This document shows positions 7,219-51,802 of a stretch of DNA of 64,000 bases, piece by piece. Origin of the DNA: an uncultured virus (IMG/VR IMGVR_UViG_3300034812_000685) (Duplodnaviria > Heunggongvirae > Uroviricota > Caudoviricetes); the IMG/VR virus record IMGVR_UViG_3300034812_000685; one strand, 5' to 3'. The position numbers and the translations under genes were made by a program. Position 1 is the first letter of the stretch, and every line of letters starts with the position of its first letter. Under the pieces are notes generated by a model, which saw only the letters and a list, made by a program, of their open reading frames with translations, did no database searches and was not told the DNA's origin.

Positions 7219-7617
7219 ATGGCGGCAATTGGTCTAGCATATGTTGCGCAAGATAGTGTCAGCCATAATGTTGTTATCCGTAGGTTTACCGAAGGAGCAA
7301 TACCAAGGATTTACGACGGAACCGCTGCTTACGGAAGAACGGCTAGCGGAGGTACAACCGTCGAATCTCGTGCTGGACGGCAGAAATACATCTGGGCAAT
7401 ATCTGCTCCATTGAGCAAAGCTGATGCCTTAGAGATTGATGCGATGTTTAAAGATTGGGATGAGGACAGGTCTAATGGCTATGCCTCTGCTGTTGGAGTT
7501 ACTGATGAAACTTTTGGTTCTTCACTAACGACAACTGCCGTATTTAGTACGCCGCCTTCATACGAATATGTAAATGAACATTTTGTAATAGTTACTTTTG
7601 GATTAACGGAGGTTTGA
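7219..7617 (+). CDS. putative distal tail protein
   Basis: Size and position after the tape measure gene; beta-rich sequence. Confidence 0.5.
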   Translation: MAAIGLAYVAQDSVSHNVVIRRFTEGAIPRIYDGTAAYGRTASGGTTVESRAGRQKYIWAISAPLSKADALEIDAMFKDWDEDRSNGYASAVGVTDETFGSSLTTTAVFSTPPSYEYVNEHFVIVTFGLTEV

Positions 7618-7618
7618 T

Positions 7619-9868
7619 ATGTCATATATTATCAATGGCGCTAGGCCACATGCCTTAACTATAGGCGGAACAAATTACACTTCGAGACTTGTAAACTTTA
7701 CAGTTTCAGATGGCTCGGCGTTTAAAAATGGCTTTGTCACAACTAGTGGTACGGTCACTCTGGCTACAACAAATGATGGAACAAATCTGGCTGATTACGA
7801 CCGCAACATGTTCAAGCGTGGGGCTGTAGTATTATTAGATATAACTTATGATGATGGAACTACAGAAAGACATCCCAGAGGGTATCTTTATGTAATTGGG
7901 GTTAGCTATGATATTGAAAATGAGCAGATTAATATTGAAGTTGGTTGTGAGCTTACCCTAAGAAGATTGATAAATAAAGTAGATGACATATTGACTCTAG
8001 CTCCAATCACTCTAGACCCAGAAAGAAAAACTTACGAGGGTATTTCAGGAAGTCTCGCTACTGCTGGAAAATATGCCTACCAAAACAATCAAGGCACAAT
8101 TGTTACGACAGATTCTTTTCCAAGTCAAAACGAATTCTTTGTTGATAATAATGTTTATATTTCTGTCAGGGGCACAACAGCCGTTGACGTAAACCCACTA
8201 CAGTCAGGCCCTGCGCCGGATGAAATTATATTTGAAGCAGCTGAGCCGACAGCTGGAGAAAATACATCTGGACAGGGCATGGAAGATGTAGTAACAACAA
8301 CAAGTTATTATTTTATAAAACATCCGGGACCACTTTTTAAGCAAGTAAGGTCCTGCAGTGAGGTGCAAGAATGTCTTGGAGATTTAAAAAATTCAACGCC
8401 TGACAATCAACTTCCTCCTGTTGTACCTAACAGCTGTGGCCGCGATCCTGAAACGCCACCTGAAGCTGGGTACAGCAAATGTGAAGATATGTATGAAGTC
8501 ATAGAGAATCGTATTTACCTACCGGCAAGGTCGACTCAAATACAAACAACCACTTACGGAGGACCAGCAGCTCAAGTCAGTGAGGTGGTTACCGAAACTT
8601 ACAAGTTCGCACTAGAGTTGAATCCAGGGTTCTTCTCTGATGTTTTCTATGCTTGCTGGGCCAATTTTGGAACGTATTGCAATCCAAATGGGTACTGCAG
8701 AATCGGTGGATTGCATTCCATACTCGCAGAAAGAAGAATTCAGAAAAACATATTTGGTGAAGCTAACGAAGTGGTGGAAACCCAAAACTTTGTGTATTCA
8801 AATAGCCTCGCAGTTGTAAAACCTGAGGATTATCGAAGCGGCACTGTTGATGGCGTACCACAGATTTTTACCGCAAGTGTACCGGCCAGACTGTTTCTTG
8901 CAGAATATACAAGAATTTTAAATTATAGCGAAGATAATCTTGAAGTACAAGAGACAATTACTAAGACAAGTCCAACATCAAGGGGTATTGGTGTTAGTAA
9001 AGGTCTTTATTATATTGACGCGATCCAGAATGGTATTACAACAAGACAAATCAGAAAAAGCACAAAGGCGACTGTCCTAAATATTGCGCCAGATAATGCA
9101 AATAATTCAGCAACCATAACACAAAACAGCAAGACTACAATTGAACTTGAGAATGGTGGAAAGGAGGGACCTTCTTGGCACGAAAAGTATATTGCAGAAG
9201 AAAGTGGCCTTGTACCATTTCTAATCGACAACAAGGAAGCTAGACAAGCCGCTATACGTAAGTACGAAAACTATTTGAAATACTGGTACGAAGGTGACGC
9301 CAGGGGGATACAGATAACGGAGATGTTGCGTAAAACTATTGCGACCAATTGGTATCCGACCAGAACCTTTAGATATTACGATCCTAATACCCCATACTAT
9401 GCAGCTTTCAGAATGGATGCTTCTAGCTGGGAGGTAACACCAGCTGGCTGCTACGTGGCTACTGATGGACTGTTTATAGATGAATTTAGTGGTGCCCCGA
9501 CAATACCAAACAATGTGGTAGGCGCTGCAACCCCTGACATGACTGATGGCGCTCCGACAACTCCTTCAGCACCTAACCCAGAGCCCACAGATAATGACCC
9601 GGACTTTTCAAATCCGAAAAACATGAAGATTAGATGCACGCTTGAATTGGGATTCAGTGTGAAAGCAAGATATGGCGGATTAGTCCCACCACCGATCACG
9701 AGAGCCGATGCAGATCTCAACTTTATAATGAAGATATATGTGAGCGGTATTTTGTCTCAAGTAGGTGCGTTAGTTCTTCCTACAGAACTCGGTAATCTGC
9801 CTATTACTTCAGGACAAAGGCTAATTGTTGACGACAGCAAAATTATTGACCAGGACTTATTTGCCTGA
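7619..9868 (+). CDS. putative tail tip/hub protein
   Basis: 749 aa, Thr-rich, in the canonical position after the Dit-like gene; internal Cys cluster. Confidence 0.55.
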   Translation: MSYIINGARPHALTIGGTNYTSRLVNFTVSDGSAFKNGFVTTSGTVTLATTNDGTNLADYDRNMFKRGAVVLLDITYDDGTTERHPRGYLYVIGVSYDIENEQINIEVGCELTLRRLINKVDDILTLAPITLDPERKTYEGISGSLATAGKYAYQNNQGTIVTTDSFPSQNEFFVDNNVYISVRGTTAVDVNPLQSGPAPDEIIFEAAEPTAGENTSGQGMEDVVTTTSYYFIKHPGPLFKQVRSCSEVQECLGDLKNSTPDNQLPPVVPNSCGRDPETPPEAGYSKCEDMYEVIENRIYLPARSTQIQTTTYGGPAAQVSEVVTETYKFALELNPGFFSDVFYACWANFGTYCNPNGYCRIGGLHSILAERRIQKNIFGEANEVVETQNFVYSNSLAVVKPEDYRSGTVDGVPQIFTASVPARLFLAEYTRILNYSEDNLEVQETITKTSPTSRGIGVSKGLYYIDAIQNGITTRQIRKSTKATVLNIAPDNANNSATITQNSKTTIELENGGKEGPSWHEKYIAEESGLVPFLIDNKEARQAAIRKYENYLKYWYEGDARGIQITEMLRKTIATNWYPTRTFRYYDPNTPYYAAFRMDASSWEVTPAGCYVATDGLFIDEFSGAPTIPNNVVGAATPDMTDGAPTTPSAPNPEPTDNDPDFSNPKNMKIRCTLELGFSVKARYGGLVPPPITRADADLNFIMKIYVSGILSQVGALVLPTELGNLPITSGQRLIVDDSKIIDQDLFA

Positions 9869-9899
9869 TCGGAATACTACTGCGACGGGAGGCTAATTT

Positions 9900-10625
9900 A
9901 TGGCTATTACTGGACAGGTCTCTGTAGCGGAGATTACAAAGCAAATAACTGACCGTTTTGTTGATCAATATTGTGAGTGCTTGCTAGTTAATTACAATGG
10001 CAACTATGACCCTGGGTCCACTGTTGACTCAACATTTCTTGCGTCTGAGGTTACCACTGGTACAGGTGGTTACGAGCGTCAGACGATTAAATTCGTAGCC
10101 AATGATGTCAGTGCTTACGCTAGTGAGAACGTTGGACTGCAGACAAAAGTCGTAATTTTTGAGCACGATGGCGGGTCAACCCCATTTACATTTACTCATG
10201 CTGTTTTGGTGTGGGGCACAGGAAACGTTAAGACCCTAGATGCTGCAACGCAAGATCCTGCTACGGGTACAGATGGTACTTATACGGATCTAATTACCAG
10301 TACTGACGGCTCAGGTAGTGGCGCTACGCTCGACCTGGTGGTGGCTAGTAATGTTTATACCTTTACTGTCAGCAATGCAGGCACAGGCTACGCTGCTACC
10401 GACAACCTAACGGTTTCAACCGCAACGATGATTGCAGCAGGTGCTTTGCCAAGCGGATCAACAGAACCATCAGCAATTTTACCTATTGGCACAGTTCACA
10501 CCAACACTGAGGGCGGAAATATTATCGGTGTTGTTAAGACTGACGCTGCGGTTACTGTAGACGGGGGCAATCAAGTTTCTTTCTACTGGGATATCAAACT
10601 CTTTGGACTAGACGGAACTATTTAA
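9900..10625 (+). CDS. virion structural tail protein
   Basis: EVTTGTGGYERQTI and SGSGATLDLVV...TVSNAGTGY motifs seen in phage tail/baseplate proteins. Confidence 0.6.
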   Translation: MAITGQVSVAEITKQITDRFVDQYCECLLVNYNGNYDPGSTVDSTFLASEVTTGTGGYERQTIKFVANDVSAYASENVGLQTKVVIFEHDGGSTPFTFTHAVLVWGTGNVKTLDAATQDPATGTDGTYTDLITSTDGSGSGATLDLVVASNVYTFTVSNAGTGYAATDNLTVSTATMIAAGALPSGSTEPSAILPIGTVHTNTEGGNIIGVVKTDAAVTVDGGNQVSFYWDIKLFGLDGTI

Positions 10626-10626
10626 A

Positions 10627-10884
10627 ATGGCTTCTAATCTAAGTGCCGTTCAAGCCGCCAACAGGATGATTGAGCTTGAAAGACGGGAAAGCCCTGAACC
10701 AATTCAAGGTACTATTACTGGCACAGTGGCGGCCAGTTGGATAAAGCTAGGAGAAGACGGAGCAGGCAGAGTTGAGTACAAAGATCGCGAATATATTGTA
10801 AGCACAGTTGGTTTTACTTCTTTACCAAAAGGAACAAAAGTACAAATGACCTATGGAGGGGGCGTTTATTACGCGATTTACTGA
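10627..10884 (+). CDS. small tail-module protein
   Basis: Tightly coupled ORF within the tail operon. Confidence 0.6.
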   Translation: MASNLSAVQAANRMIELERRESPEPIQGTITGTVAASWIKLGEDGAGRVEYKDREYIVSTVGFTSLPKGTKVQMTYGGGVYYAIY

Positions 10885-11096
10885 TGGCAATCAATCCACC
10901 CGGTTTCCAAGCAACACGGATTCAAGACGCTGAAAGCGTTTGTGTAAGGATGTTGGATCAAAGGCCGAGAACACTTACTGCTTTAGACCAAGCCGTAGAC
11001 CCAAATGAAATTGTAGGTTTTTATAATGCTGCCAACGGCTACGTAGAGCTATATGTATCAAGTGGTGATGGAACATTCTACTTTAAGTTGTCGTAA
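10884..11096 (+). CDS. small tail-module protein
   Basis: TGATG stop/start overlap with the upstream gene. Confidence 0.6.
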   Translation: MAINPPGFQATRIQDAESVCVRMLDQRPRTLTALDQAVDPNEIVGFYNAANGYVELYVSSGDGTFYFKLS

Positions 11097-11602
11097 TGCC
11101 TGCATGTATTGACTGCCATTTGTTTGACGGTGGTGATTTCACTACTGGAATTGCTAGCAGTGAAGCTTGTACTATTCAAATAATTTTTGATGGCGGAAAT
11201 TTTACTACAGGCGCAACGACTGATGTATTTCATTCTAACACTTGCGTTATAGATGGCAATGTTCTTGTCGGAGATAAGGGGTATGCATCACTTAATCATG
11301 TGGTGATTGTTGGGGTCAAAACTATTGAAAAGAAACTTGTACCTGTATACACAAGGCAAATTGATTCCGATCCAAGACAACCTGTCACTATAGAAAAGGA
11401 TGGTTTTATTATTAGCACTAATTTAGATCCTAAGCAACCGGGTGAGTTCATTGTTGTGAAACCTCCTGATCCTCAACTTGACGGAAGCATATTTGTATCC
11501 GCTTACGATGAATCAGGAATTCTTGCGTGGAGGCCCGTATCAATTGGTAGAACTATGAGAGATTACAGGGCCGTTAATCCAAGTAACCAAGTTACATATT
11601 AA
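11096..11602 (+). CDS. tail-module protein with N-terminal CxxC and a duplicated FDGG(D/N)FTTG motif
   Basis: TAATG coupling to the upstream gene; repeat visible in the translation. Confidence 0.6.
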   Translation: MPACIDCHLFDGGDFTTGIASSEACTIQIIFDGGNFTTGATTDVFHSNTCVIDGNVLVGDKGYASLNHVVIVGVKTIEKKLVPVYTRQIDSDPRQPVTIEKDGFIISTNLDPKQPGEFIVVKPPDPQLDGSIFVSAYDESGILAWRPVSIGRTMRDYRAVNPSNQVTY

Positions 11603-11631
11603 AGGCAAACTAACACGAACTTATAAAAGCC

Positions 11632-13161
11632 ATGCCCTGGTATAACAGTAGAGAACTTTTTAATAAGGCTGGCCTTACATTTCCATATAGACCCGGCAAT
11701 TCTAGATCTGCGTACAGGGCTGCTTCTCCAAGAGAGACAGAGAGTAGAGAAGAATTTAATTCGCCATCGCCAGTAAAATATTATAGGCCTGGATCACCCG
11801 AAAACCTTACGCGACTGGGATATAGGCCGGGTGCTAATCCAAAAGATTTGATTTTTGATAATACCAATACCACATGTGTTTCTGATTTAAATTGCGCTAC
11901 TGGATTTACCTGCATAGGAGGTAGGTGTCAGCAAGATCAAGGTGAAGCAAAGGCAGGTACTGGTAGTGGAGCTGATTGCGAAGATCCTGAACCAGATTTG
12001 CAAGATTGTCCTTGCGATGAAAGTACTTGCGGACCAAGAAAATGCTGCAATGGACCTATTTACACAAGGACCGTACCAAGACCCGGAGGCGGTTTAATTA
12101 CAATACAGCAGTGTGAGCCGTTTGAAGAACCCGACAATTGCAATAGTTTTTGCACTAATCATTACCAAACGTTTGGCACGCTTGCAAGTGGCTGCACCAT
12201 GAATCAAGTGTGTTATGCCGGGCGATGTGTGGATGGCGTATGTCAGCCAGATGAGGACAAGTGCAATATGGGAGGCAAGTGCGGTGATTGCGAAGTTTGC
12301 GACAATGATGGCAATTGCGTTTTTACCTGCGATGGTTGCAAAATAAATTGCACTAGGAGTAATTTTAAATGTCCTTGTGGCAATGTCTATGTATCAGGCG
12401 GTGCTAGTATAGCTTACTGTCAATCCGGATACGGCAGTCCAACTTGCCAACAAAAACTGCATAGAATGCTTATAAATAAGTGCGAAGCAATTGCGCCTTG
12501 TTCCCGGCCTCAGGGACAAAACTCTTGTACCACACAACAATATGGCAATACTACTTTAAGTTGTGAATGTGTAAGCTCACAGACAACTTGTCCGCAGAGT
12601 GGTGATTATGGAGGGGGTTACTGTTCAGGCTTTAGTCAGGCTGGTAAACGTTGTTACGACAGAGGGATTATATGGGTACCTGATCCAGATGCAAGATCAC
12701 AATGCTTGCCAGGCACAAAAGTTACTAAATTTGCGAAGCTTTGTAATATAAAAGAGGATGAGGATGGATGCAATGGTCCTCCTGGGTGTCCAAGTGGTCA
12801 AAAATGCAACCAACAAACCGGCTCTTGTGAAACTGATGAAGAAAAAGAGGTATGCGAAAGTGGTAACGTATGTCAAGGTAATTGCTGTGCGCAAGGAGGC
12901 GGATGTGTTGCGTATAGAAAATTTAAGATAGCTGATAATTGTCACGGACAAGGAGGAACTTTCTTTGGGCCTGCAGGCGGACCTACTTTAATAGAGGTTG
13001 CATTTGTACCCGCAGCATATTCAGTTTGCGGTAGGAGTCATACGCATTGCATGGTAATGGTAAATTGCCAACAGGTAGCAAGTCATCTTGAATGTAATAA
13101 TGGTTTAGTCGACATGGGTCCAGCTGGATTTAGTGGATGCCCCTCACCCTCTTCATGCTGA
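11632..13161 (+). CDS. cysteine-rich tail-associated protein
   Basis: About 55 Cys in 509 aa (hand count) with EGF/Dickkopf-like spacing such as CVSDLNCATGFTCIGGRC; no signal peptide; has its own promoter motif. Confidence 0.75.
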   Translation: MPWYNSRELFNKAGLTFPYRPGNSRSAYRAASPRETESREEFNSPSPVKYYRPGSPENLTRLGYRPGANPKDLIFDNTNTTCVSDLNCATGFTCIGGRCQQDQGEAKAGTGSGADCEDPEPDLQDCPCDESTCGPRKCCNGPIYTRTVPRPGGGLITIQQCEPFEEPDNCNSFCTNHYQTFGTLASGCTMNQVCYAGRCVDGVCQPDEDKCNMGGKCGDCEVCDNDGNCVFTCDGCKINCTRSNFKCPCGNVYVSGGASIAYCQSGYGSPTCQQKLHRMLINKCEAIAPCSRPQGQNSCTTQQYGNTTLSCECVSSQTTCPQSGDYGGGYCSGFSQAGKRCYDRGIIWVPDPDARSQCLPGTKVTKFAKLCNIKEDEDGCNGPPGCPSGQKCNQQTGSCETDEEKEVCESGNVCQGNCCAQGGGCVAYRKFKIADNCHGQGGTFFGPAGGPTLIEVAFVPAAYSVCGRSHTHCMVMVNCQQVASHLECNNGLVDMGPAGFSGCPSPSSC

Positions 13162-13198
13162 TAAGACAATGGAAAACTAGCCTAGCTTTGATCGTTAA

Positions 13199-16100
13199 AT
13201 GGCTGTTTTTCCAGATAAACTTATCCTAAAAAACACCACTGATTCAGTTTCGCAGATCAAACAGGTTATAAATCCTACAGACGGTAGCAACCCTATCGTT
13301 CCTGGTGAACTTGTAGTTAGACATAAACGTGGCGGGGTAGACCTCTATTCAATTGATGCAAATAACACTGTCGTCAGAGTTGGAACAGACCAGTTAATAC
13401 CAGCTGTATCGCCTAATATTCTCCTTAACTTTGAAAATACAGTTGATGATACTCCTTATTCACCAGCATTCACCACCACTTTTCCTGATACTACAGTTTA
13501 TAAGTTCGGAACCAAAGCCGCTACGTTTGAAAATGAGTTAAATTATCCTTACAAGGATGTCATAGAAATAGCAGCTAGCAACCTCGAGAATCTTAGTGTA
13601 CTTCCATGGACATTACAGTTTTGGATAAAGGGTAATCTTTCTGACTGGTATAACTACAATGATGGACTAGGTTCCGGCTTTCTTGGGATTATTGGAAGTA
13701 AATATTACGTACGTGGGCCGGGTGCTTGGCAGGTTTATTTGGATGCAGGGACATCTGATCAGCCAAATGCTGGAGGGACTTCAACTAGTGAAACCAGCGG
13801 GCAAGCAAGAGGATCTGTTGTTTTAGGCATCGGTCCAGGAGGCAACCAGACACATGATTTCTTGCCGTCTACCGGTGAGATTGTTTCTACAAGAGCCACT
13901 TCTGTTCTTGATGGTAATTGGCATCATGTTGTAATTCAACACGAGGGTGAAGGTGTATATTCTGCTTTTGTAGATGGGATATTGAAGCAGCGAAAGTTTC
14001 ATAATGAAGCTATTGATTTTGGGGATCCTGGAGATACAGGTTTTGCTTTACCTCAGCCGATAAGGATTGCAGGTAATACATCCGGACAGGATGGAGTGAC
14101 TGGTACTATTGCTGGTCTTAATGGCACTCTTGATGCTATTAGCCTTCATGTTGGGGCAGCTATATATAAGGGTTTGTATTCGTATACAGTCCCAACTGCC
14201 GCTCCAACTGATGATCCTATTACGGCGAGAAGCACAGATGAACTTAGGCGCTTGTATGATACTGATTTTGGCGATTATGCAAGTCTGGCAAATAATTCAA
14301 TAATTCAGTGGAATTCTACAGCTCAGGCATGGCAAACAGGTGTGCTACCTTCCCCTAATCTTAGCGGAAGCAGTATTGGAGATGTCTCGGATGTTGAACT
14401 CGAGGTGTATGCCAATATTGGCGAGGGAGAAACACTCAATTGGAGTATAACTGATCAGAAATTCAAAAACCAACCATTTACTATCGACAATCTTGGTAAT
14501 GTAAATATTACAAGCCTAGCAAATAATCAGTTTCTTAAATACAACAATACCAGTACTAATTGGGAGAATCATACTTTAGAATATGTTGACATAGCAGGTC
14601 GTCCTACCAGCCTTAGTGACTTAAGTGTTGATATTAATGTTGGCGACTTAGCGAATGTTGACATTTCATCGCCAATAGACAATCAAGTTCTAGTCTATAA
14701 TGCTGCAACAACAAGGTGGGAGAATGATTTTGGACCGGCGGCTAATATAAGCGCGAACAGTGTTTATGATCTATCTGATGTGCATGGCAATTCTGGAAGC
14801 ACAATTGACGATCAAGTTTTAATCTGGAACAACACGAACAACCGGTTTGAGCCTGGTTATGTTGATTATAGCGATGTTACCGGTCGTGTTGTCGATAATA
14901 TTCAAATAGCTAATGGCAGAAACTACATAACAAATATTCAAAGTGAAGATCTGGGTGATCTTTCTGATGTAACCCTAAGTTCGGTAAGCAATGGCGATAC
15001 CCTCGTTTATCAAAATGGCGCTTGGCGCAATCTACCGGCTGCTGCAGCAGATATTTCGGGCAATGTAATTGATGACTTGTCTGACGTAACTAATACTGCC
15101 AGCGGCGACGAGAAAATTCTTACGATTGAAGACGTCACTGAATTTCGTCTTGACCCTTCGTCTGCTTATATGCCTGGCGGATTTGAAAGGTGTTTGATTG
15201 CGGATCCTGAATTTGGTCTTGGGATCAAGAATTTTAGATCAAGTGATGATACTGGTACGGCTATTTATGTTGAACGCGGTCGTGGTGTCACTGTCCGTAG
15301 CGACATGGGTCGACTGCATATCCAAGGAAGGCTGGGAGCACAGTACACAAATAATACGCCAGAAATAAGAATTGATAGCGGCGATTCGGGTGCAGATACA
15401 CCTACAGGTTATTACGTTGGTTTTACTATACCCTCGAACCTTACCGAAAGCACTGATTATGTGTTGCCGAACGAAGATGGAGATGTAGGAGATGTCCTTG
15501 CTACAAATGGAAACGGTGCATTAACATGGGTAGCCCAGGTTTCTTCTGGCAGCATTAATGATCTATCAAATGTAGATATATCTTCTACGCCACCTACTGA
15601 TGGCACTTTCCTTCGTTATAACAGTCTGGCAGCTTCCTACCTGGTCCATACACTCAGCCTGGGTGACGCGAGTAACGTTGACCTGACAACAACAACTCCT
15701 ACAGATGGCCAAGCCCTGGTCTATGTAGCCGCTGACAACGAATGGGTGGCAGGAGATGTCGCGCAGGATTTGAGTACTGCAAGTATTGATGAATTACAGG
15801 ATGTTGACACAACAACAACTGTACCAACTAACGGTCAAGTACTCAAATGGAGTGGGTCTACATGGGTGCCAGGGGATGTCGTGGCCGATCTTAGTACATT
15901 TAGTATTGATGATTTATCAGATGTAAACACTACAACCATCGCTCCTTCTGATGGGCAAACGTTGCTCTGGTCTGCTGCAAACTCTGAATTTAGGCCAGGT
16001 AATGCAATTCTGCCAGGCACTGTAACTGTAACAAAGACCGAGAATTCAATAGCCTCCAATAGTACTAGTCAATTTGATAAGGCTGTAGTTAATGGAGCTG

Positions 16101-16372
16101 GCTTAATCCATAGTGCAAGCAGTGACGTAGCAGGTTGGTTGCGGATTTACGAATCATCTGCGGCGAGGACTGCGGACGCAGGCAGGCTTAGGACTGTTGA
16201 TCCTGAAGTAGCTGATGGAGTAATTCTTGAAATTATCTTTACAGGAAATGAAACCTATACTTTTACACCGAAGGCTTCTTACTACACAAATACTCTTTAC
16301 TACGCATTTACAAATGATTCAAATACAACAGCAAATGTGACTATTAACTTGGTGACGGTTGGGCTTGCTTAA
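13199..16372 (+). CDS. tail fibre with LamG/concanavalin A-like domain and shaft repeats
   Basis: WTLQFWIK...DGNWHHVVI...FVDG LamG motif; many DLSDV...GQxLxW repeats. Confidence 0.85.
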   Translation: MAVFPDKLILKNTTDSVSQIKQVINPTDGSNPIVPGELVVRHKRGGVDLYSIDANNTVVRVGTDQLIPAVSPNILLNFENTVDDTPYSPAFTTTFPDTTVYKFGTKAATFENELNYPYKDVIEIAASNLENLSVLPWTLQFWIKGNLSDWYNYNDGLGSGFLGIIGSKYYVRGPGAWQVYLDAGTSDQPNAGGTSTSETSGQARGSVVLGIGPGGNQTHDFLPSTGEIVSTRATSVLDGNWHHVVIQHEGEGVYSAFVDGILKQRKFHNEAIDFGDPGDTGFALPQPIRIAGNTSGQDGVTGTIAGLNGTLDAISLHVGAAIYKGLYSYTVPTAAPTDDPITARSTDELRRLYDTDFGDYASLANNSIIQWNSTAQAWQTGVLPSPNLSGSSIGDVSDVELEVYANIGEGETLNWSITDQKFKNQPFTIDNLGNVNITSLANNQFLKYNNTSTNWENHTLEYVDIAGRPTSLSDLSVDINVGDLANVDISSPIDNQVLVYNAATTRWENDFGPAANISANSVYDLSDVHGNSGSTIDDQVLIWNNTNNRFEPGYVDYSDVTGRVVDNIQIANGRNYITNIQSEDLGDLSDVTLSSVSNGDTLVYQNGAWRNLPAAAADISGNVIDDLSDVTNTASGDEKILTIEDVTEFRLDPSSAYMPGGFERCLIADPEFGLGIKNFRSSDDTGTAIYVERGRGVTVRSDMGRLHIQGRLGAQYTNNTPEIRIDSGDSGADTPTGYYVGFTIPSNLTESTDYVLPNEDGDVGDVLATNGNGALTWVAQVSSGSINDLSNVDISSTPPTDGTFLRYNSLAASYLVHTLSLGDASNVDLTTTTPTDGQALVYVAADNEWVAGDVAQDLSTASIDELQDVDTTTTVPTNGQVLKWSGSTWVPGDVVADLSTFSIDDLSDVNTTTIAPSDGQTLLWSAANSEFRPGNAILPGTVTVTKTENSIASNSTSQFDKAVVNGAGLIHSASSDVAGWLRIYESSAARTADAGRLRTVDPEVADGVILEIIFTGNETYTFTPKASYYTNTLYYAFTNDSNTTANVTINLVTVGLA

Positions 16373-16415
16373 TTAAATTGCAGTAGGAATAATAGAAAGA
16401 ATTAGGTCTGCATTA

Positions 16416-17258
16416 ATGGCTTGGGCAAAAGCTTATACATCTACTGACAGTGTATCTCTCGCAAGCAGTGCAGACACCATTAGTGTTCTTGATGAGTATT
16501 TTGATACTTGGCTGACCAGCAAGGGATGGTCGACCTCTAAATTTCTCAACTCAGGCGCAAGTACAAAGTTTTACTATGCATCAAAAAATATACAATTGTT
16601 CGGAGGCAGTACAAAAAGATTTGGAATTTGCTTGCAGTATGAATTTAGTGGTTCAACCGAAGTTTTTTATCAATACCATTTTGGTTCAGAAGAAACTCCA
16701 AGTGCTTCGGGTCCCAGTGGGTCAGCATACGAGAGTGATAATGTAAGCACTAATCACACGGGTCAATGGAACTTCTGGACTGACTCGCAAGACAGCGATT
16801 GTTTTGCTATCATTACTGATCAGGGAAAGGTTGTAGCATTTTGGCCACCAGAGGGTAGTTTGGTCGGTACTGCTTATAGCGGAGCCAGGTCTAATAGTCA
16901 GCCATCTCAACCGATTACACCGATGATAGTAAACAACGTATCTGTAGACGAATATTTTGTTGATACATACCAGGGTGGTGGAAAGATTTATACAATAGGT
17001 ACATATACTTCTTTCCCTGATACATTCACAGTGCCAACAGCCTTTTATAATTATGGTTTCGCTGTAGCTGCTACTGGCGGTCTTTATATGTATGATACAA
17101 GCGGCCGTACTGCAACGTATGTAGAAGACTACACCAGTAGCAGTCCACATATAGACGATAATTCTGGTACTTTGCAAGTTGGGACAATTTATTATATTAG
17201 ACTTGGTGGCAACAACTCTATTCTTCTTAATTGCGGCACTACTGATCCTGGTGTTTAA
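16416..17258 (+). CDS. hypothetical tail-associated protein
   Basis: Ser/Thr/Tyr-rich 280-aa ORF after the fibre gene, preceded by the promoter motif. Confidence 0.55.
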   Translation: MAWAKAYTSTDSVSLASSADTISVLDEYFDTWLTSKGWSTSKFLNSGASTKFYYASKNIQLFGGSTKRFGICLQYEFSGSTEVFYQYHFGSEETPSASGPSGSAYESDNVSTNHTGQWNFWTDSQDSDCFAIITDQGKVVAFWPPEGSLVGTAYSGARSNSQPSQPITPMIVNNVSVDEYFVDTYQGGGKIYTIGTYTSFPDTFTVPTAFYNYGFAVAATGGLYMYDTSGRTATYVEDYTSSSPHIDDNSGTLQVGTIYYIRLGGNNSILLNCGTTDPGV

Positions 17259-17260
17259 TT

Positions 17261-17446
17261 ATGGCGTTAACTGTTTTTCCTGGAAGCGGTATCCAGCCTT
17301 CACCGGCAAACCCTAGTTTTCAGTTGCATGTTCTAACTACTGTTGGGACTGAAGACGTAAGTTTTGCTTTCTTTGGTACACCTAATATCGGCGGCACTCA
17401 GGGCAGACCTTCATCAGGAATTGTATGGCCTCGGCGTTTAGGATAA
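17261..17446 (+). CDS. small virion-associated protein
   Basis: 61-aa ORF coupled to the upstream gene. Confidence 0.55.
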   Translation: MALTVFPGSGIQPSPANPSFQLHVLTTVGTEDVSFAFFGTPNIGGTQGRPSSGIVWPRRLG

Positions 17447-17475
17447 AGGTATACTACGTCAACTAAAAATAGGCA

Positions 17476-17853
17476 ATGAATATTGGCAGGGAATTAATGA
17501 CCGATGGTGTTATGCCTGCTGGTCCTGTTTGTGGTTGGCCTAAAGAAAGGCATGACAGGCTCTTCTTGATGGCTGGATCTGACTTGAAAGACGAAAAGCC
17601 AAAAAAAGATAAGCATGTAAAAGCAGGTCTAGGATCGATGGCAAAAGGTGTGATCAAAAGCACCTATCAAGCGGTTGCAAACGGAAAGGTCTCCAAAGAG
17701 ATCAGGGAAGAAAGATATGCTATTTGCCAACAATGTCCACATTTTATTGAGGACTCTAAAAGGTGTTCGCAGTGCGGATGTTTTATGGAGGCAAAAACGT
17801 GGATTGGTGGTGATCCAGATCAATTGTGTCCAAAAGCAAAATGGCCAAGATAA
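17476..17853 (+). CDS. Cys-motif protein (DUF6171-like)
   Basis: ERYAICQQCPHF...RCSQCGCFM..KT...CPKAKW pattern. Confidence 0.7.
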   Translation: MNIGRELMTDGVMPAGPVCGWPKERHDRLFLMAGSDLKDEKPKKDKHVKAGLGSMAKGVIKSTYQAVANGKVSKEIREERYAICQQCPHFIEDSKRCSQCGCFMEAKTWIGGDPDQLCPKAKWPR

Positions 17854-17903
17854 AGTAGGAATACTATGTGGAATTTTTCCCAAGGGTGATCCTTGGCAAT
17901 CAC

Positions 17904-18629
17904 ATGGCTGAAGAGACTAAAGTTTCCGAGACGGAATCGCAATCTCAACAAGATTTCACGACCACAGAATCTGCTGAACCCGATCAGAACAACGAAGGCC
18001 TTTACCGGGCACTAAAAGCTGAACGAGAAGCCCGTAAAAATTACGAACGACAAGTTAAAGAACAAGCTGCAATGCTTGCTCGGTTTGAAGAAACCAATCC
18101 TGATGAGGTTAAATCACTCCGCGAAGAAGCGGCCAAAGCAGCACAGCTGCAGGCACAATTTGGCGAGGCTCGTGAAGCTATTGAATTGAAGTATTCAAAA
18201 GAAGCTGAAGCCGCTCGTGAAAGTGAGGCACTTGCAAAAGCAAACCTTGCTGAATTCCGTAAAAAATATGCACTTGAAAAGGTGTTTCTTGCTGCTGGAG
18301 GTAAGACGGATTCTGCAGACGGAATTAGCTTTTTTGATATGCTAAGCAATCAGATTTCTGGATCATTCCGACAGGAAGAAGACGGCAGTCTTACGGTAGT
18401 CGATGCAGCTGGCGATCCTATTTTGGACAAAGAGTCCGGCAAACGTATTGATCCGCTGGACTTTGTGTCTAGCTATAAAATTCATCCAGTGTACGGAACT
18501 TTCTTCAAAGGAGCTAAAGGTACTGGCGCTGGTATCGGGTACGGAGGCACAGACGCTAACGGCATGCCTGTTGAAGACATGACTAACTTGTCTAGGGATG
18601 AAATGTTCCGACGTGCATTTGGTACCTGA
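17904..18629 (+). CDS. capsid scaffolding protein
   Basis: Acidic coiled coil (ALKAEREARK) with C-terminal FFKGAKGTGAG, directly upstream of the capsid gene; ATG at 17904 preferred over the track start at 17868. Confidence 0.8.
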   Translation: MAEETKVSETESQSQQDFTTTESAEPDQNNEGLYRALKAEREARKNYERQVKEQAAMLARFEETNPDEVKSLREEAAKAAQLQAQFGEAREAIELKYSKEAEAARESEALAKANLAEFRKKYALEKVFLAAGGKTDSADGISFFDMLSNQISGSFRQEEDGSLTVVDAAGDPILDKESGKRIDPLDFVSSYKIHPVYGTFFKGAKGTGAGIGYGGTDANGMPVEDMTNLSRDEMFRRAFGT

Positions 18630-18810
18630 TTTCGGTAATCTTCTAATTAGAGGTAAAAGTTACTACCAAATATATAGGTATCATAACAGTAGATCACCCC
18701 AAGGGCTTCTCTGAGACGGAGTCGACTGGACGGGTGTCGAGCTGTTATCTGCGCGATGCTTTTAATCAGCAACCTCACCCAATCTTTTCTCTCCTCTCTA
18801 GGTATTAAAA

Positions 18811-19701
18811 ATGGCCCTTACTCTGCTTGAAGCGCAGAAGCATGCAACCACCCCGGCTGAGCTTGCAGTTGTAACTGAACTCGCCGCTGGTCCTCTGCTG
18901 TCTGTGCTTCCTTTCCGCAATATTGAAGGCAACGGTCTGTTCTGGAAGCGTGAAGAGTCCCTGCCCGATGTCGGCTTCCGTAACTACAACGGTGCCCTCG
19001 CCGAGTCCTACGCTGAAGTCAGCCAACAGTCCGAGAGCCTGAAGCTCTTCGGCGGCGACATCAAGGTTGACCGCGCTATCGTGGACCTCGAAGGCGCTGA
19101 AGCCAAGGCTTATCAGATCCAAGCTCGTGTTCGCGCAATGCGTCTGGCATGGGAAAGCCTGTTCATCACCGGCGATTCTGATCAGTCTCCTTCTGAATTC
19201 GACGGCCTGCAGGCTCGTATCGGTTCTGGCTCTTCTCAGTACATTGCTAACGGCTCTGGTGCTCTGAACCTGGACAAACTGGACGAAGCTATCGATGCAG
19301 TTGATGCCCAGGGCGGCACTAAGTACCTGGTCATGTCGAAGTCTGCTCGTCGTCACCTGAGCAAGCACGCTCGCGCTAACGGTCAGATCGAGATCACCCG
19401 TAACGACTTCGGTTACCAGCAGCTCGTCTATGGCGGCGTGCCGGTGCTCGAAGTTGATCGCGACCACAAGAACGTTGCTATCCTCGACGGCACCCCTTCC
19501 GACCAGGACATCTACTGCGTGTCCTTCGGTAACGACCTCCTGACTGGCATCCAGAACGGTGGCGTGAACGTGCGTGAACTGGGCGAGTCCCACGACCAGC
19601 CCCAGCTGATCACCCGCGTTGAGTGGTACTGCGGACTGGCCCTGATCAACGGCCGCGCTGCTGCCCGTCTGGCTGGTGTTGACGCAACTGCTTCCGTCTG
19701 A
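18811..19701 (+). CDS. major capsid protein (HK97 fold)
   Basis: LLSVLPF...REESLP...FRNYN, GGDIKVD, EFDGL and TRVEWYCGLA motifs; strongly biased codon usage; followed by a terminator. Confidence 0.9.
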   Translation: MALTLLEAQKHATTPAELAVVTELAAGPLLSVLPFRNIEGNGLFWKREESLPDVGFRNYNGALAESYAEVSQQSESLKLFGGDIKVDRAIVDLEGAEAKAYQIQARVRAMRLAWESLFITGDSDQSPSEFDGLQARIGSGSSQYIANGSGALNLDKLDEAIDAVDAQGGTKYLVMSKSARRHLSKHARANGQIEITRNDFGYQQLVYGGVPVLEVDRDHKNVAILDGTPSDQDIYCVSFGNDLLTGIQNGGVNVRELGESHDQPQLITRVEWYCGLALINGRAAARLAGVDATASV

Positions 19702-19726
19702 TACTGATAACCAACTGAATAGGATT

Positions 19727-19750
19727 AAGGGACCTTCGGGTCCCTTTTTT
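19727..19750 (+). terminator. intrinsic terminator
   Basis: AAGGGACC-TTCG-GGTCCCTT followed by a T run. Confidence 0.9.
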
Positions 19751-19804
19751 AATGCTTTGACATAGGTAGCCTAGTGCAACAAAATTACGCCGCAGGAGGG
19801 CGTT

Positions 19805-19987
19805 ATGGCTACTACTCTTTCTACTCGAGGTCTAAACCTCCCCGCTCACGATACTGTTGAGCCCGCTGGCCATAACGCTGATGGTAATCCTGCGACCATC
19901 ACATACAAGCTTGACGGTTCTACTGTTGCTACCCTGACGTTTACTTATGACGCCAGTGGTAACTGCACTTCCATCGCACGGAGCTAA
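19805..19987 (+). CDS. small virion protein
   Basis: ITYK..G.TVATLTFTYD..GN motif common in small phage structural proteins. Confidence 0.6.
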   Translation: MATTLSTRGLNLPAHDTVEPAGHNADGNPATITYKLDGSTVATLTFTYDASGNCTSIARS

Positions 19988-19992
19988 GGATA

Positions 19993-21822: not shown

Positions 21823-22172
21823 TGTTTTGTTACCGCTTTCCCGACCGCGAAACCTTCCTGGGACTGTGCGATACTCTTGGATGGCTCTCAGTAATTACCG
21901 ATGAGTCTCCAGAGGCCACTTTAATCGCCTACACGTCCGATCGCGCCATCGACGAGGTTGGCTCTATTGAGGTGACCCCAGGTGCCTATGACGAGGAAGG
22001 AAATGAATTGACTCCTCCAGTCATGGACACGCGCCACCATGTGAACTTTATCGGCGAGCATCCTGCAGAGTTTGATGCGTACCTCATTTTGGTCAATAGT
22101 CCTTACAGGCAGTTTGCTGGCAGCAGTGGTCCAAGTGCTGACCCCAACGCCCCTGTCGAGCCAGGAGAGTAA
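21822..22172 (+). CDS. fibre-associated small protein
   Basis: TGATG coupling; TPGAYDEEGNELTPP motif typical of fibre partner genes. Confidence 0.65.
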   Translation: MFCYRFPDRETFLGLCDTLGWLSVITDESPEATLIAYTSDRAIDEVGSIEVTPGAYDEEGNELTPPVMDTRHHVNFIGEHPAEFDAYLILVNSPYRQFAGSSGPSADPNAPVEPGE

Positions 22173-22225
22173 ATCGGCATACTACTACTTTTTTTGTCTT
22201 TAAACTGAATAAGTTCCAATTCGTC

Positions 22226-22825: not shown

Positions 22826-22905
22826 TGGTAATATAAAATGTAGCGCCATTCGCTTCATCTCTCTACGAGAAGGTTTAGGCGCACTTACTTAACCAGAGGT
22901 TCCAA

Positions 22906-23256
22906 ATGGCTCAACGTTCAACTCAGATTTTCCCACGCGAAGGTTTTAACCTGGACGATTCGGCGAAAATCACCGCTACCGCAACTGGTACTGATGCTCC
23001 TGTCACCTTGACTGCCATCAAGACTATCCGCGTTATTGTTATCGGTGCATCCGGTATTGATAATGCTGGCACCAACAAGATCACCGTCACCCTTGGCGGT
23101 CAAGACGTGGTCTTTAATGCTGCTGACCTTGATCGCAACGGTGTGGGTATTGCCCATGTCCGTGGCGCTCTGTGTGATGCAGATGACAACGACGCTTACG
23201 TCACCCTTGGCGGCACCGCTGCTCACAATGGTGTGTTCCTGGAACTGGTCGACTGA
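22906..23256 (+). CDS. putative capsid decoration/minor head protein
   Basis: Highly expressed-type codon usage like the capsid gene; own promoter motif and terminator. Confidence 0.55.
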   Translation: MAQRSTQIFPREGFNLDDSAKITATATGTDAPVTLTAIKTIRVIVIGASGIDNAGTNKITVTLGGQDVVFNAADLDRNGVGIAHVRGALCDADDNDAYVTLGGTAAHNGVFLELVD

Positions 23257-23280
23257 TCGATCTTTTAACTTGGAATACTA

Positions 23281-23307: not shown

Positions 23308-23312
23308 GTGAT

Positions 23313-24914: not shown

Positions 24915-24929
24915 GAAACAACTATGAGC

Positions 24930-47635: not shown

Positions 47636-47833
47636 ATGACTGCAACCATCCATACTCTGCCCCAATGCCCCTGGTGCGTACGGGCCAAAAAGCTTTTGGA
47701 TCTAAAAGGAATTACCTACGAAGAGGTGGACGGTAAGTCACCAGATTGGAAAACTGTTCCGTACATCCAGATTGATGGTGAACCCATTGGAGGCTTTACT
47801 GAACTGACTTCTTATCTGCGTAGTTTGATTTAA
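47636..47833 (+). CDS. glutaredoxin
   Basis: CPWC active site, TVP and IGGF motifs; ATG at 47636. Confidence 0.92.
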   Translation: MTATIHTLPQCPWCVRAKKLLDLKGITYEEVDGKSPDWKTVPYIQIDGEPIGGFTELTSYLRSLI

Positions 47834-49480: not shown

Positions 49481-51802
49481 ATGAAGGAATTTCGTCAATC
49501 AGCCCCTTCCGCCGAAGCTGTTTTCTATCGTACCTACAGCCGTCGCAAAGCTAATGGCACGAGGGAAAGCTTTTATGATGCAATGTGTCGCACTATTGAT
49601 GATATTGCAGAAATCGGCAAATTCAATCAAGAGCAGTACGACTTGGTAAGGCGTGAAGCTTTGGGCCAACGTGCATTCCCTTCTGGGCGTGCTTTCTGGG
49701 TTGCTGGTACAAAGTGGGGAAAGAAACAAGAAAACTTTTCTGGTTATTACAACTGCACGTCAACTCATATTCAAGACATTGAAGCTTTTGGGCTGCTAGT
49801 TGATCTTGCAATGATGGGATCTGGTACTGGTGCTGTGTTAGAACCAGAAGTGATTGCAAAACTGCCGACAGTAAAAAACAAGCTTGAGATTGTTTCAGTC
49901 AAGGAAATCGGAACCTTGCCAGCTGATCAGCGGCACGATAACAGTAGGATGGACACCAATTTGCCTTCTGGTGTAATCCAAATCTCCGTTGGAGACAGTC
50001 GCCATGGTTGGCAGCAGGCTTATCAAATGTTGCTAAATCTTGGTTTCTTTGGTGCTCCTAATCATGAAGGCACTATTAGGATTCATCTCGATCTTTCAAG
50101 TGTTCGGCCTTCAGGAGAGCGTTTGAAAGGTTTTGGCGGCACAGCTAATCCAGTTAAGCTTGAAGAGGCATTCCGCAAGGTTGCTGATATTTTTACTGAT
50201 GCGGTCGGCCGGCAGCTTACCTCTGTTGAAGCTTGTCTGCTGATTGACGAGGCGGCTACTGCTGTTGTGGCAGGGAACATCCGACGCAGTGCTGGTATGC
50301 GCCAATTCGGGCAAGATGATACGGATGCCGCAACGGCAAAGCTTGGCTTGTACACACAGGACGAAGAAGGTAATTGGCGCGTAGATCCAAAAAAAGAAGC
50401 CTTGCGTATGGCAAATCACACTCGTTGCTTTCATACAAAGCCTTCACTTGAAGAAGTTACTGATGCAGTTACAAAGCAGTTTCATTCCGGTGAAGGTGCA
50501 ATTCAATATGTACCGGAAGCTGTTTGCCGTGCAAATGTAGACGTTTTAAATTCTATCAAATTACGCAAGCAGTTTCTTGCTACATATACCCGACACGGGC
50601 GCAACACTGCCAAGGGTTTTCTTTTCAATACAGCTGCCATGCAGGGTGGTTGCGAGCTTGACCAACGCGAACTTGATCATCGGATGGATCGCTATGGGCT
50701 CAATCCTTGTGGTGAAATTATCGGCCGTGACTTCCACTGCAACCTTGCTGAGGTCCATCTTAATACCATTTCACCTGATAACAAAGAACAGCAAGAAGAT
50801 GCTTTCTATGCTGCTGGCCTGCAGGTCGCTGCGTTGCTCCAGCATGAATTTGTACATGAACGTTATCAGTACTCACGGGAAATTGATCCGATCGTTGGTG
50901 TCAGCTTTACCGGTTTGTTCGATTTTTTTGTTCATGCCTTTGGCAGTGAATGGCTGAAATGGATGATGGAAGGTCGCCCAGATGATGGTCGCCGGGCTGC
51001 AAAGTTCACCAGTTCGGAGCAAATGTTCCTTGCTCGTTGGCGTACTTCTGCCCGTAAAGCAGTCATCGAATACTGTAAACAGCACAATATCCGCGTACCA
51101 AATCGGATCACCACAGTTCAACCAGCTGGTACTAAAAGTCTTTTGACGGGCGCTTCTTCCGGATGGCATCCTCCTAAAGCTCAGCGTTTTATTCGTCGGA
51201 TCACCCTGGGAGTCTCTGATCCTTTGGTGCCATCTTTGATCGAGTATGGATTCAATGTGATCCCTGCTCAATCGGCACGAGATGAAGAGGGGAATCTGCT
51301 TGACGACATTTCAGACCCACGAGTACAAGAGGTGCTTGTTGAAATCCCGACTGAAGTAAGTTGGGCCAATCTCCCTGGGTGTGATCAATTTGATCTTGCA
51401 AATTTGCCTGTTGAAGCTCAATATGGTCTTTACATGCAGGTGCAAACTCACTACACGGACCACAACACTTCTGCAACAATTGAGCTGCGGGAACATGAAA
51501 TCGAGACACTGTCAAAGCTGATTTATGAAACCATCCAGAAAGATGGCGGATATATTTCAGCAGCCTTGCTTGCCAGGTTTGACGCTAACGAAACGTTCCC
51601 TCGTCTTCCCTTTGAGCCAATTAGTAAGGAAAAGTATGACGACGAAGTCATCATTAATATGTTCTCTCGCGATTCTGAAAATTTTCTCAGTATTCTCAAT
51701 AAGTACGACAGCGAGGATTGGTCGATCGAATCAGTAGCAGGTTGTCAATCGGCAGCTTGTCTCGACAAGGCCGACAAAGATGAAAGGGACAAGGGTCTTT
51801 AA
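49481..51802 (+). CDS. nrdJ: class II (adenosylcobalamin-dependent) ribonucleotide reductase
   Basis: FYRTYSR, YNCT, GNIRRSA, GLNPCGEI, TTVQPAGTKSLL and C-terminal Cys pair; no beta subunit gene nearby. Confidence 0.95.
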   Translation: MKEFRQSAPSAEAVFYRTYSRRKANGTRESFYDAMCRTIDDIAEIGKFNQEQYDLVRREALGQRAFPSGRAFWVAGTKWGKKQENFSGYYNCTSTHIQDIEAFGLLVDLAMMGSGTGAVLEPEVIAKLPTVKNKLEIVSVKEIGTLPADQRHDNSRMDTNLPSGVIQISVGDSRHGWQQAYQMLLNLGFFGAPNHEGTIRIHLDLSSVRPSGERLKGFGGTANPVKLEEAFRKVADIFTDAVGRQLTSVEACLLIDEAATAVVAGNIRRSAGMRQFGQDDTDAATAKLGLYTQDEEGNWRVDPKKEALRMANHTRCFHTKPSLEEVTDAVTKQFHSGEGAIQYVPEAVCRANVDVLNSIKLRKQFLATYTRHGRNTAKGFLFNTAAMQGGCELDQRELDHRMDRYGLNPCGEIIGRDFHCNLAEVHLNTISPDNKEQQEDAFYAAGLQVAALLQHEFVHERYQYSREIDPIVGVSFTGLFDFFVHAFGSEWLKWMMEGRPDDGRRAAKFTSSEQMFLARWRTSARKAVIEYCKQHNIRVPNRITTVQPAGTKSLLTGASSGWHPPKAQRFIRRITLGVSDPLVPSLIEYGFNVIPAQSARDEEGNLLDDISDPRVQEVLVEIPTEVSWANLPGCDQFDLANLPVEAQYGLYMQVQTHYTDHNTSATIELREHEIETLSKLIYETIQKDGGYISAALLARFDANETFPRLPFEPISKEKYDDEVIINMFSRDSENFLSILNKYDSEDWSIESVAGCQSAACLDKADKDERDKGL

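Follow-up and report, generated by a model that had tools for sequence, protein, structure and literature searches.

How do disulfide bonds form in phage particles that are assembled in a reducing cytoplasm? This is stated as an open question in the accessible part of the report on mycobacteriophage Jabs (10.64898/2026.07.24.740622; here and below, the cited sources were available in part). It is raised again by a 64,000-nt stretch of DNA from an uncultured virus (IMG/VR record IMGVR_UViG_3300034812_000685; hereafter the window), in which a tail-tip gene encodes a protein with more than 10% cysteine (Cys) and a gene further downstream encodes a small DUF6171-like protein with six conserved Cys. 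A sequence-only reading of the window had proposed a disulfide- or metal-knotted fibre or spike whose folding depends on the DUF6171-like protein and/or a phage glutaredoxin. Our analysis partly confirms what that reading observed and partly supports how it interpreted it. With about even confidence, we favour a disulfide-stapled tail-tip appendage and a non-virion DUF6171-like maturation helper that would act on its thiols. The features at the centre of the analysis are:

11632..13161, plus strand: Cys-rich modular protein, 509 aa, 55 Cys (composition, homologue alignment, model)
11875..11928, plus strand: four-Cys module C-x5-C-x5-C-x4-C within this protein
17476..17853, plus strand: DUF6171-like six-Cys protein, 125 aa, candidate non-virion maturation helper (profile, alignment, model)

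A cysteine-rich modular protein of the tail-tip block

The count of about 55 Cys given earlier is exact: the 509-aa protein has 55 (10.8%), compared with 4.1% for the next-highest listed open reading frame (ORF) of at least 150 aa, and against an assumed background of 1.2% the p value is ~3e-34. Three homologues cover 99% of its length at 49-67% identity. Across these and the window protein 52 Cys are invariant, against 151/436 other ungapped columns, which indicates that the ORF is real. One contig, which may be the source itself, spans 7600-18700 without differences, and contigs of a second study cover portions of the ORF with few substitutions. The protein comprises a Cys-free N-terminus (residues 1-81), a four-Cys module (82-99), block A with 7 Cys (100-169), block B with 32 Cys (170-399) and a variable C-terminal domain with 12 Cys (400-509). 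The lack of a signal peptide was also borne out by a simple test that is not SignalP: the N-terminus is not hydrophobic (maximum 11-residue hydropathy of 0.33 in the first 40 aa), and 0/56 family members reach 2.0.

To speak of EGF/Dickkopf-like spacing, as was done before, goes too far: CxxxxxCxxxxxCxxGxC is present a single time (residues 82-99; twice in a looser form), and 11632-13161 matched no Pfam, PHROG or NCBIfam family, EGF and Dickkopf included. Among the 56 family members, profile matches were to DUF7107 in two and Peptidase_S74 in one, with none to EGF or Dickkopf. The four-Cys module recurs in 15 copies in a relative (L041), where it matches Pfam DUF7107 (PF23416). L041 (57.9 bits) and ORF084 of the cultured relative P-SS2 (24.9 bits) score above the DUF7107 cut-off of 24.6; the window protein falls below it, with no match.

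The structural model (pLDDT 72.4, pTM 0.31) is a string of small, locally confident domains with no fixed relative orientation. It has no PDB match (best Z 4.1), a result in which residues 234-378 alone are well tested and which is not proof of a new fold. The sole strong fold match in a viral library was F4YCL0 (500 aa, E 1e-13), which we take to be gp029 of S-CBS2 from the equal protein length. Sequence searches of solved structures with the Cys-protein and DUF6171 alignments gave nothing at E<=1, residues 78-410 retrieved nothing usable from the Atlas, and tblastn against cultured phages gave no match, the Cys proteins being too diverged for it.

A positional counterpart in P-SS2 virions

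The window carries the markers of a cyanosiphovirus (tape measure, tail tube, scaffold, major capsid, primase, sigma factors, ThyX, dCTP deaminase and class II reductase). The closest cultured relatives of its hub-like and six-Cys proteins are S-CRES1-3, S-CBS2 and P-SS2, with identical gene order, and its source is a marine cyanobacterial virus, an S-CBS2/P-SS2-like cyanosiphovirus. The placement of the Cys ORF among tail-tip genes agrees with this, as it occupies a slot in the tail-tip block of such phages. The other genes of the block are:

7619..9868, plus strand: hub-like tail-tip protein, 749 aa, probable role judged from its place behind the tape measure and a 132-aa gene
9900..10625, plus strand: conserved tail-block protein, 241 aa, a DUF6171-independent anchor for locus retrieval
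10627..11096, plus strand: two small conserved genes (85 aa, 70 aa) ahead of the Cys gene, used in gene-order comparison
11096..11602, plus strand: protein of a variable slot ahead of the Cys gene, 168 aa, with an N-terminal CxxC
13199..16372, plus strand: Cys-poor tail fibre-like protein, 1057 aa, 1 Cys, weak laminin-G-like match in profile scans
16416..17446, plus strand: two lineage-specific genes (280 aa, 61 aa) separating the fibre gene from the DUF6171-like gene

We surveyed 73 loci of the clade, fetched with the 241-aa gene regardless of Cys content. The slot of the Cys gene holds an ORF of at least 250 aa with at least 7% Cys in 59/59 loci covering it, and a DUF6171-like gene lies ahead of the scaffold gene in 35/35 loci reaching the scaffold. 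The proteins in the Cys slot are ~25% identical and range from 313 to 854 aa and from 38 to 111 Cys. Because both genes are present in every locus, co-occurrence inside the clade is uninformative and was discarded as a test of the link between the Cys protein and DUF6171.

Gene order and slot in S-CBS2 (gp029/gp034), S-CRES1 (gp85/gp87) and S-CRES3 (gp92/gp97) are as in the window, with a Cys-rich protein of 500-540 aa (59 Cys in S-CBS2 gp029, 53 in S-CRES1 gp85) and DUF6171-like genes 46-54% identical to that of the window; these counterparts are annotated as hypothetical or 'RNA polymerase-like'. Most relatives differ from the window by a second Cys-rich gene behind DUF6171. This variable Cys-bearing ORF is present in 27/35 relatives (for example L009:971-2191, L017:10387-11343, L052:10871-11788, L057:10427-11587 and L063:16295-17335), has a Pfam match in 0/3 tested and is absent from the window.

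P-SS2 also has a Cys-rich gene in the same slot, but it is five times longer (ORF084, 2612 aa, 282 Cys) and directly adjacent to the DUF6171-like ORF085. In the accessible part of the P-SS2 virion proteome (PMC2784084), ORF084 averaged 43 peptides and ORF085 had 0. Virion peptides were found for all of ORFs 076-083 and 086-091, some of just 66-89 aa, including the hub counterpart ORF079 and the positional counterparts of the 85-aa and 70-aa genes, ORFs 082 and 083. The samples had been reduced and alkylated, and the word cysteine is absent from PMC2784084. The presence of the slot protein in virions supports the proposal of a Cys-knotted tail part.

This evidence is transferred to the window by gene position only, because the similarity of ORF084 is no higher than its composition would give. 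Homology of the Cys protein to ORF084 could not be shown, and several observations count against the transfer: reversed ORF084 scores as high on the family profile as the forward sequence (463.7 vs 458.3 bits), a comparison of the Cys-family profile with ORF084 returned a probability of 1.4%, and the S-CBS2 annotation calls gp029 hypothetical but gp024, 025 and 030-032 structural. S-CBS2 gp026-028 are likewise labelled hypothetical, yet their positional P-SS2 counterparts were detected in virions. The tie to ORF084 thus consists of gene position and a common type of four-Cys module, DUF7107 being matched in both L041 and ORF084.

The DUF6171-like six-cysteine protein

The product of 17476-17853 matches PF19668 (DUF6171) at 23.9 bits (E 5.4e-5), under the gathering cut-off of 27, and PHROG 13558 at E 1e-11. 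The earlier description of a DUF6171-like protein closing the tail block therefore stands as regards the shared six-Cys motif, and below the cut-off we file the protein as DUF6171-like, not as a curated member. The motif, CxxC-x(7-9)-CxxCxC-x(12-16)-CP..W, is invariant in 148 aligned sequences, members above the cut-off included, with C84, C87, C97, C100, C102, K107, C118, P119 and W123 as invariant residues; 147/148 of these sequences match PF19668 at E<=1 (best 2.7e-11). Its first Atlas match is DUF6171 (0.94), in clusters that are 79-97% viral, and the DUF6171-like family counts 1325 representatives at E<=0.001, mainly viral. The window protein differs from DUF6171 and PHROG 13558 by a clade-specific N-terminal extension, and no function is recorded for the family. 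The model (mean pLDDT 88.9) shows two helices, a hairpin and short helices; a PDB search with it gave nothing at E<=0.001, and the best Z over 48,161 chains was 2.7, but this is not proof of a new fold. A predicted complex of Cys-protein residues 78-509 with DUF6171 residues 46-125 scored 0.00 and gives no verdict. A literature search, with most subscription papers beyond its reach, found no paper on the Cys-rich family or on DUF6171, and the accessible part of the phiCbK paper (PMC3556154) held nothing relevant.

Several DUF6171-like genes are annotated as RNA polymerase-like, namely those of S-CBS2 (gp034, L062:18284-18703), P-SS2 (ORF085, L065:20531-21088) and ACP17 (L075:11992-12198). For S-CBS2 gp034 and P-SS2 ORF085 family matches do not support the label, which is probably a mislabel caused by the CxxC pattern. 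Unannotated DUF6171-like ORFs were found in S-LBS1 (L069:14989-15129, directly behind a 13-Cys tail protein), S-CBWM1 (L073:11998-12201), Sf-FP1 (L074:11974-12132) and BUDD (L071:11968-12168). DUF6171 also occurs fused to a glycosyltransferase-2 and methyltransferase protein or to unknown N-terminal domains (P0138, L628:4611-6326, P0096, P0045, P0073, P0134), and some phages carry two copies, in tandem or as two cassettes (L052:9998-10869; L145/L146; L147/L148).

DUF6171 accompanies cysteine-rich tips in unrelated phages

Outside the clade, a first DNA motif scan gave at least 122 stretches, 80 of which were fetched and clustered at 75%. The nearest upstream same-strand ORF of at least 150 aa contained at least 7 Cys in 60 residues in 15/65 loci, compared with 4/447 other same-strand ORFs (p 2e-11); 0/20,000 within-locus permutations were as high, and thresholds of 6 and 8 agree. 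The enrichment was replicated when the spacing was changed in a second scan (80 of 120 stretches fetched, same rule), with 10/63 vs 4/399 (p 7e-7). Pooling both sets, with the first as 15/64 vs 4/433, gives 25/127 vs 8/832 and an odds ratio of 25. The genes upstream of DUF6171 in the first set encode PASTA-, FN3-, ConA- and gp38-like fibre-type proteins.

Tip-first controls, in which fibre families were fetched by their N-terminal domains, then addressed whether DUF6171 follows fibres or cysteines; the seeds came from DUF6171 loci, and the statistics ignore kinship. For the FN3 type (75 loci from the best 80 of 599 matches, 60 of them usable, in 52 clusters), DUF6171 lay within 2 kb of 3/3 tips that reach 5 Cys per 60 aa and of 0/49 Cys-poor tips that do not (2/2 minus the query, p 8e-4). 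For the gp38 type (80 loci, 65 usable, 30 clusters) the figures were 26/26 Cys-rich and 1/4 Cys-poor, the four Cys-poor clusters being the most distant relatives. All 18 clusters of the ConA type (33 of 39 loci usable; the flank was too short in the other 6, 5 of which have DUF6171) were Cys-rich with even counts and 17/18 had DUF6171; as there were no Cys-poor variants, this type provides no contrast. The link is one-sided: Cys-rich tips nearly always come with DUF6171, and the reverse does not hold. These results, together with the absence of ORF085 from P-SS2 virions, support the functional link proposed for the DUF6171-like protein. The expected co-occurrence with ORFs of more than 8% Cys was found inside the clade but not elsewhere, where only 1/65 and 1/63 nearest upstream genes reached it; the whole-ORF threshold was dropped there, and outside the clade DUF6171 is linked to local clusters of Cys within fibre tips.

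Some results weigh against a dedicated role. A same-strand Cys cluster is found in the fetched flank of just 18/73 and 14/71 DUF6171 loci, leaving about three quarters without a Cys-rich neighbour. Six records were read whole, a scan in which many Cys clusters were shadow frames and were discounted by eye: W01, W02, W04 and G004 show no convincing Cys-rich structural gene, G001 has one 12-Cys candidate and G006 has strongly Cys-rich genes ~15 kb from DUF6171. Of 80 contigs fetched from cellular genomes 37 were confirmed, and in these the link was not significant (2/26 vs 2/112). In Moby, BUDD, ACP17, S-CBWM1 and S-CBS1 the neighbours of DUF6171 are not tail genes. As the Cys cluster is found in a minority of DUF6171 loci, DUF6171 would have a wider or second role, or linger past tip swaps.

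Other neighbours were recorded within 400 nt (100-700 aa; 96/135 upstream, 92/125 downstream). DUF6171 lies between or ahead of nrdA/nrdB in three loci (L625, L580, L204), and in a further set (L653, L165, L067:11580-11993, L190, L176, L161, L175) it has, depending on the locus, a thioredoxin-fold or peroxiredoxin gene upstream, or a ferritin-like gene or radical-SAM/SPASM genes downstream. Thioredoxin, nrdB, ferritin and radical-SAM neighbours were too few to be called enriched. 2OG-Fe(II) oxygenases and glycosyltransferases are often downstream. The Cys-rich genes of G006 (L457:13015-17906, L458:2912-4894) encode proteins of 1456 aa with 56 Cys, 660 aa with 35 Cys and 172 aa with 12 Cys, at least ~15 kb from DUF6171.

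The best-surviving alternative, which we consider unlikely, is that the disulfides form spontaneously at or after lysis in oxic water and that DUF6171 is an ordinary holdase, like Tfa or Pam3 gp25, with six Cys that are only structural zinc ligands. A place behind fibre tips and absence from virions would suit any fibre chaperone. The weak Pfam matches of DUF6171 members are to zinc ribbons, and no oxidase family was matched, neither thioredoxin nor Erv appearing among the 25 of 86 families listed. How the Jabs disulfides form is an open question, for which its authors raise oxidation during or after lysis (10.64898/2026.07.24.740622). However, DUF6171 was found with 0/49 Cys-poor FN3-type tips, so it tracks cysteines and not fibres as such, and it serves unrelated tips (PASTA, FN3, gp38-like, ConA-like), which is hard to reconcile with a shape-specific chaperone. 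The invariant R80 and K107 near the Cys may also point to an active site.

Disulfides are favoured over metal sites

Parity of Cys counts was examined in 46 clusters at 50% identity. Total Cys is odd in 31 of them. Block A is odd in 29/31 clusters (counts 7, 9, 11, 13, 15, 19 and 21), whereas block B is even in 15/17 and the C-terminal part in 13/14, with 8/13 of the even C-terminal counts not divisible by 4. The window belongs to the 29/46 clusters that the pattern could not fully segment, and was split 4+7+32+12 by alignment. Among close homologues C479 and C509 are gained and lost jointly, and His makes up 0.8% of residues in the Cys family. With Cys counts stepping by two and one odd Cys left, disulfides are favoured over Cys4 metal sites; paired gain and loss with one Cys left over is what would be expected of disulfides plus one inter-chain bond. 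The argument is weakened by the shared ancestry of the sequences, so that the counts are not independent, and by the 29/46 clusters that were not fully segmented.

The competing view, that the tip is knotted by Zn or Fe-S and that DUF6171 is a metal or Fe-S carrier loading the tip and possibly also the six Cys of the hub, is improbable in our judgement. In its favour, CxxC spacing makes up 14.4% of Cys gaps in the family, the L041 repeat region weakly matches Nab2 CCCH zinc fingers (E 0.005), and siphovirus tail tips can hold Fe-S clusters (PMC10721106). Against it, Cys counts move in twos and often not in fours, there is little His, and anamorsin is missing from the 25 of 86 families listed for DUF6171. 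In ConA-like tip proteins (L716, L735, L712 and L699; match near 5001 or 2180) the Cys form mirror-spaced ladders, both arms of which have extra repeats, and these ladders of DUF6171-linked tips look like cross-strand disulfides, which also speaks against metal.

The hub (7619-9868) is 34-36% identical to S-CBS2 gp024 and the S-CRES proteins and 27% identical to P-SS2 ORF079. The internal Cys cluster noted in it before holds in part: C110, C273, C288, C346, C354 and C360 are kept in 92-98% of 61 hubs, but C246/C252 are not, and the P-SS2 hub has 4 Cys in total. Conserved Cys in a siphovirus tip are also a feature of lambda gpL-type Fe-S proteins (PMC10721106). However, gpL has four ligands per cluster, compared with 55 Cys in the window protein, and the hub spacing is unlike that of gpL C173/C182/C205/C212.

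The premise that virion disulfides are exceptional has to be softened, as they are known in cyanophage Pam3 (PMC9942802) and mycobacteriophage Jabs (10.64898/2026.07.24.740622), where, as proposed here, they lie in tail or adhesion parts of cytoplasm-assembled particles. In both phages few Cys per protein cross-link ordinary folds, whereas the window has a protein of more than 10% Cys and a candidate helper gene.

Locus context, promoter motif and glutaredoxin

We regard it as very improbable that the two genes have no functional link here, i.e. that they are inherited core genes, with DUF6171 otherwise employed (nucleotide metabolism, mobile passenger) or the Cys protein non-virion. Both genes are always present within the clade, they are 4.3 kb apart in the window, and DUF6171 lies among non-tail genes in the five phages named above and beside nrdB in three loci. 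On the other side stand the replicated positional enrichment and the tip-first controls in unrelated phages, the adjacency of the two genes in P-SS2 and a promoter-like motif that they have in common:

11604..11612, plus strand: promoter-like motif GGCAAACTA, 28 nt ahead of the Cys-gene start, of a kind common to many structural genes
17448..17456, plus strand: promoter-like motif GGTATACTA, 28 nt ahead of the DUF6171-like gene

The motif ahead of 11632 had been described as the gene's own. It is present, but not gene-specific, since eight copies of GGHAHWMTA lie 28-30 nt ahead of gene starts, including 11632, 13199, 16416 and 17476. The window has 19 plus-strand and 3 minus-strand copies; this total of 22 is by itself not clearly above chance (15.75 +/- 3.58 in shuffles, 6/100 of which reach 22). 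Among relatives the motif precedes the Cys gene in 21/56, against a background of 1.1%. In the window 17/22 copies lie in the first 25 kb (1055-23868). GGHAHWMTA is a candidate late promoter, perhaps read by a phage sigma factor (38200 or 45289); a sigma-70 scan of the window gave 25 sites vs 32.4 expected, none ahead of 11632.

A role had also been suggested for the CxxC of the protein at 11096. CxxC occurs in 2/54 distinct proteins of that slot and, from this comparison, appears to be lineage-specific and outside the tail Cys system. The same slot has grown to ~300-330 aa in L093, L096, L100 and L102, with an extra 274-aa Cys-free gene in three. In the 280-aa gene at 16416-17258, contigs of run X5 carry 63 substitutions and gaps in 16880-17581 while the flanking genes are near-identical, which suggests a variable locus. 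Behind the tail block, at 17868-31063, lie scaffold and capsid genes and then three more fibre-like genes, at 19993, 25539 and 29036, the last with DUF7483.

The CPWC glutaredoxin reported at 47636 is indeed present:

47636..47833, plus strand: glutaredoxin (CPWC), 65 aa, PF00462 (41 bits, cut-off 22.9)
49481..51802, plus strand: class II (adenosylcobalamin) ribonucleoside-triphosphate reductase, TIGR02505 (641.7 bits, cut-off 340.05)

Its assignment to tail folding is not upheld. The gene lies behind the primase, 1.6 kb ahead of the class II reductase and 30 kb from the tail genes, and P-SS2 has a thioredoxin (ORF010) directly ahead of its class II reductase (ORF011). Glutaredoxin-type proteins supply electrons to ribonucleotide reductase. 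Such a supply to the class II reductase accounts for the glutaredoxin, which, judged from gene context, most likely donates electrons to the reductase and stands outside the tail system. A poxvirus-like relay, with DUF6171 as oxidase and the glutaredoxin handing disulfides on to tail proteins, is hardly credible: the glutaredoxin is kept in S-CBS2 and S-CRES1-3 (52-73%) and thioredoxin-fold genes lie directly ahead of DUF6171 in L653, L165 and S-IOM18, but it sits in the replication block ahead of the reductase, as the P-SS2 thioredoxin precedes its reductase, 190 phage records have a glutaredoxin relative compared with 45-56 that have DUF6171, and three or four thioredoxin-fold neighbours in ~150 loci are near chance.

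The poxvirus E10R-A2.5L-G4L pathway is a virus-encoded cytoplasmic disulfide pathway for virion proteins (PMC1318495), and the comparison drawn with it before is limited to a works-like analogy; the candidate in the window is one unrelated small protein. No Erv/ALR-type FAD sulfhydryl oxidase was found among the 30 + 12 window proteins scanned, a subset of the ORFs of a partial genome, and no dedicated G4L-like thioredoxin carrier, the only glutaredoxin found adjoining, by gene context, the class II reductase.

A probable stapled appendage and its candidate helper

In the mechanism that we favour, the 509-aa protein would be made in the host cytoplasm, where the six-Cys helper would handle the tip thiols, most likely pairing or reshuffling them through its own six Cys. 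The tip would consist of small modules in series, stapled by ~27 disulfide bonds, and of its Cys a single unpaired one (residues 100-169) would link it to another chain; it could attach to the tail tip through this Cys or through the Cys-free N-terminus. The end product would be a disulfide-stapled, fast-evolving appendage, with the variable C-terminal domain as the likely host-binding end, while the glutaredoxin would serve ribonucleotide reduction. The genes, their conservation, the stepwise change of Cys counts by two, the co-occurrence and the detection or absence of the P-SS2 products in virions are direct results; that the window protein is located in virions, contains disulfides and acts as an adhesin is inferred, as is any chemistry of the helper.

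If the helper does serve the tip, catalysis of thiol pairing or shuffling is our tentative first choice for its chemistry; shielding of thiols until lysis is somewhat less probable, and delivery of metal and binding as an ordinary fibre chaperone are both unlikely, to an equal degree. Known tail-fibre assembly chaperones (lambda Tfa, T4 gp38/gp57A, Pam3 gp25) are encoded by a small gene behind the fibre genes, and their product is not in the particle. DUF6171 resembles them in its place behind fibre or tip genes and in the absence of its product from virions, the latter in P-SS2 only; it is unlike them in tracking Cys clusters across unrelated fibre types, and profile scans found no sequence match of the DUF6171-like protein to fibre-chaperone families. 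By analogy, the Cys tip and DUF6171 may work as a fibre and its chaperone do, and possibly as the poxvirus pathway does; by sequence they are members of neither.

A bolder version, which we hold to be doubtful, is that DUF6171 is a one-gene phage catalyst of cytoplasmic disulfide formation, unrelated in sequence to thioredoxin, Erv, DsbB and Mia40. It would have spread with Cys-rich tips across unrelated fibre types and given aquatic phages hypervariable stapled adhesins, with up to ~140 bonds in P-SS2 ORF084, like secreted eukaryotic proteins.

The present analysis contributes the enrichment with its replication, the tip-first controls and the argument from parity, and it excludes the glutaredoxin and the 11096 CxxC from the system. 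As the candidate gene and its extreme substrates are named in the cultured phages S-CBS2, S-CRES1-3, P-SS2 and S-SRM01, the question of how disulfides form in such particles becomes directly testable. A catalytic helper would be a disulfide catalyst of a new kind, of use in the bacterial production of disulfide-rich proteins; with a non-catalytic one, DUF6171 would still gain its first function, and the tail appendage would be of a new design.

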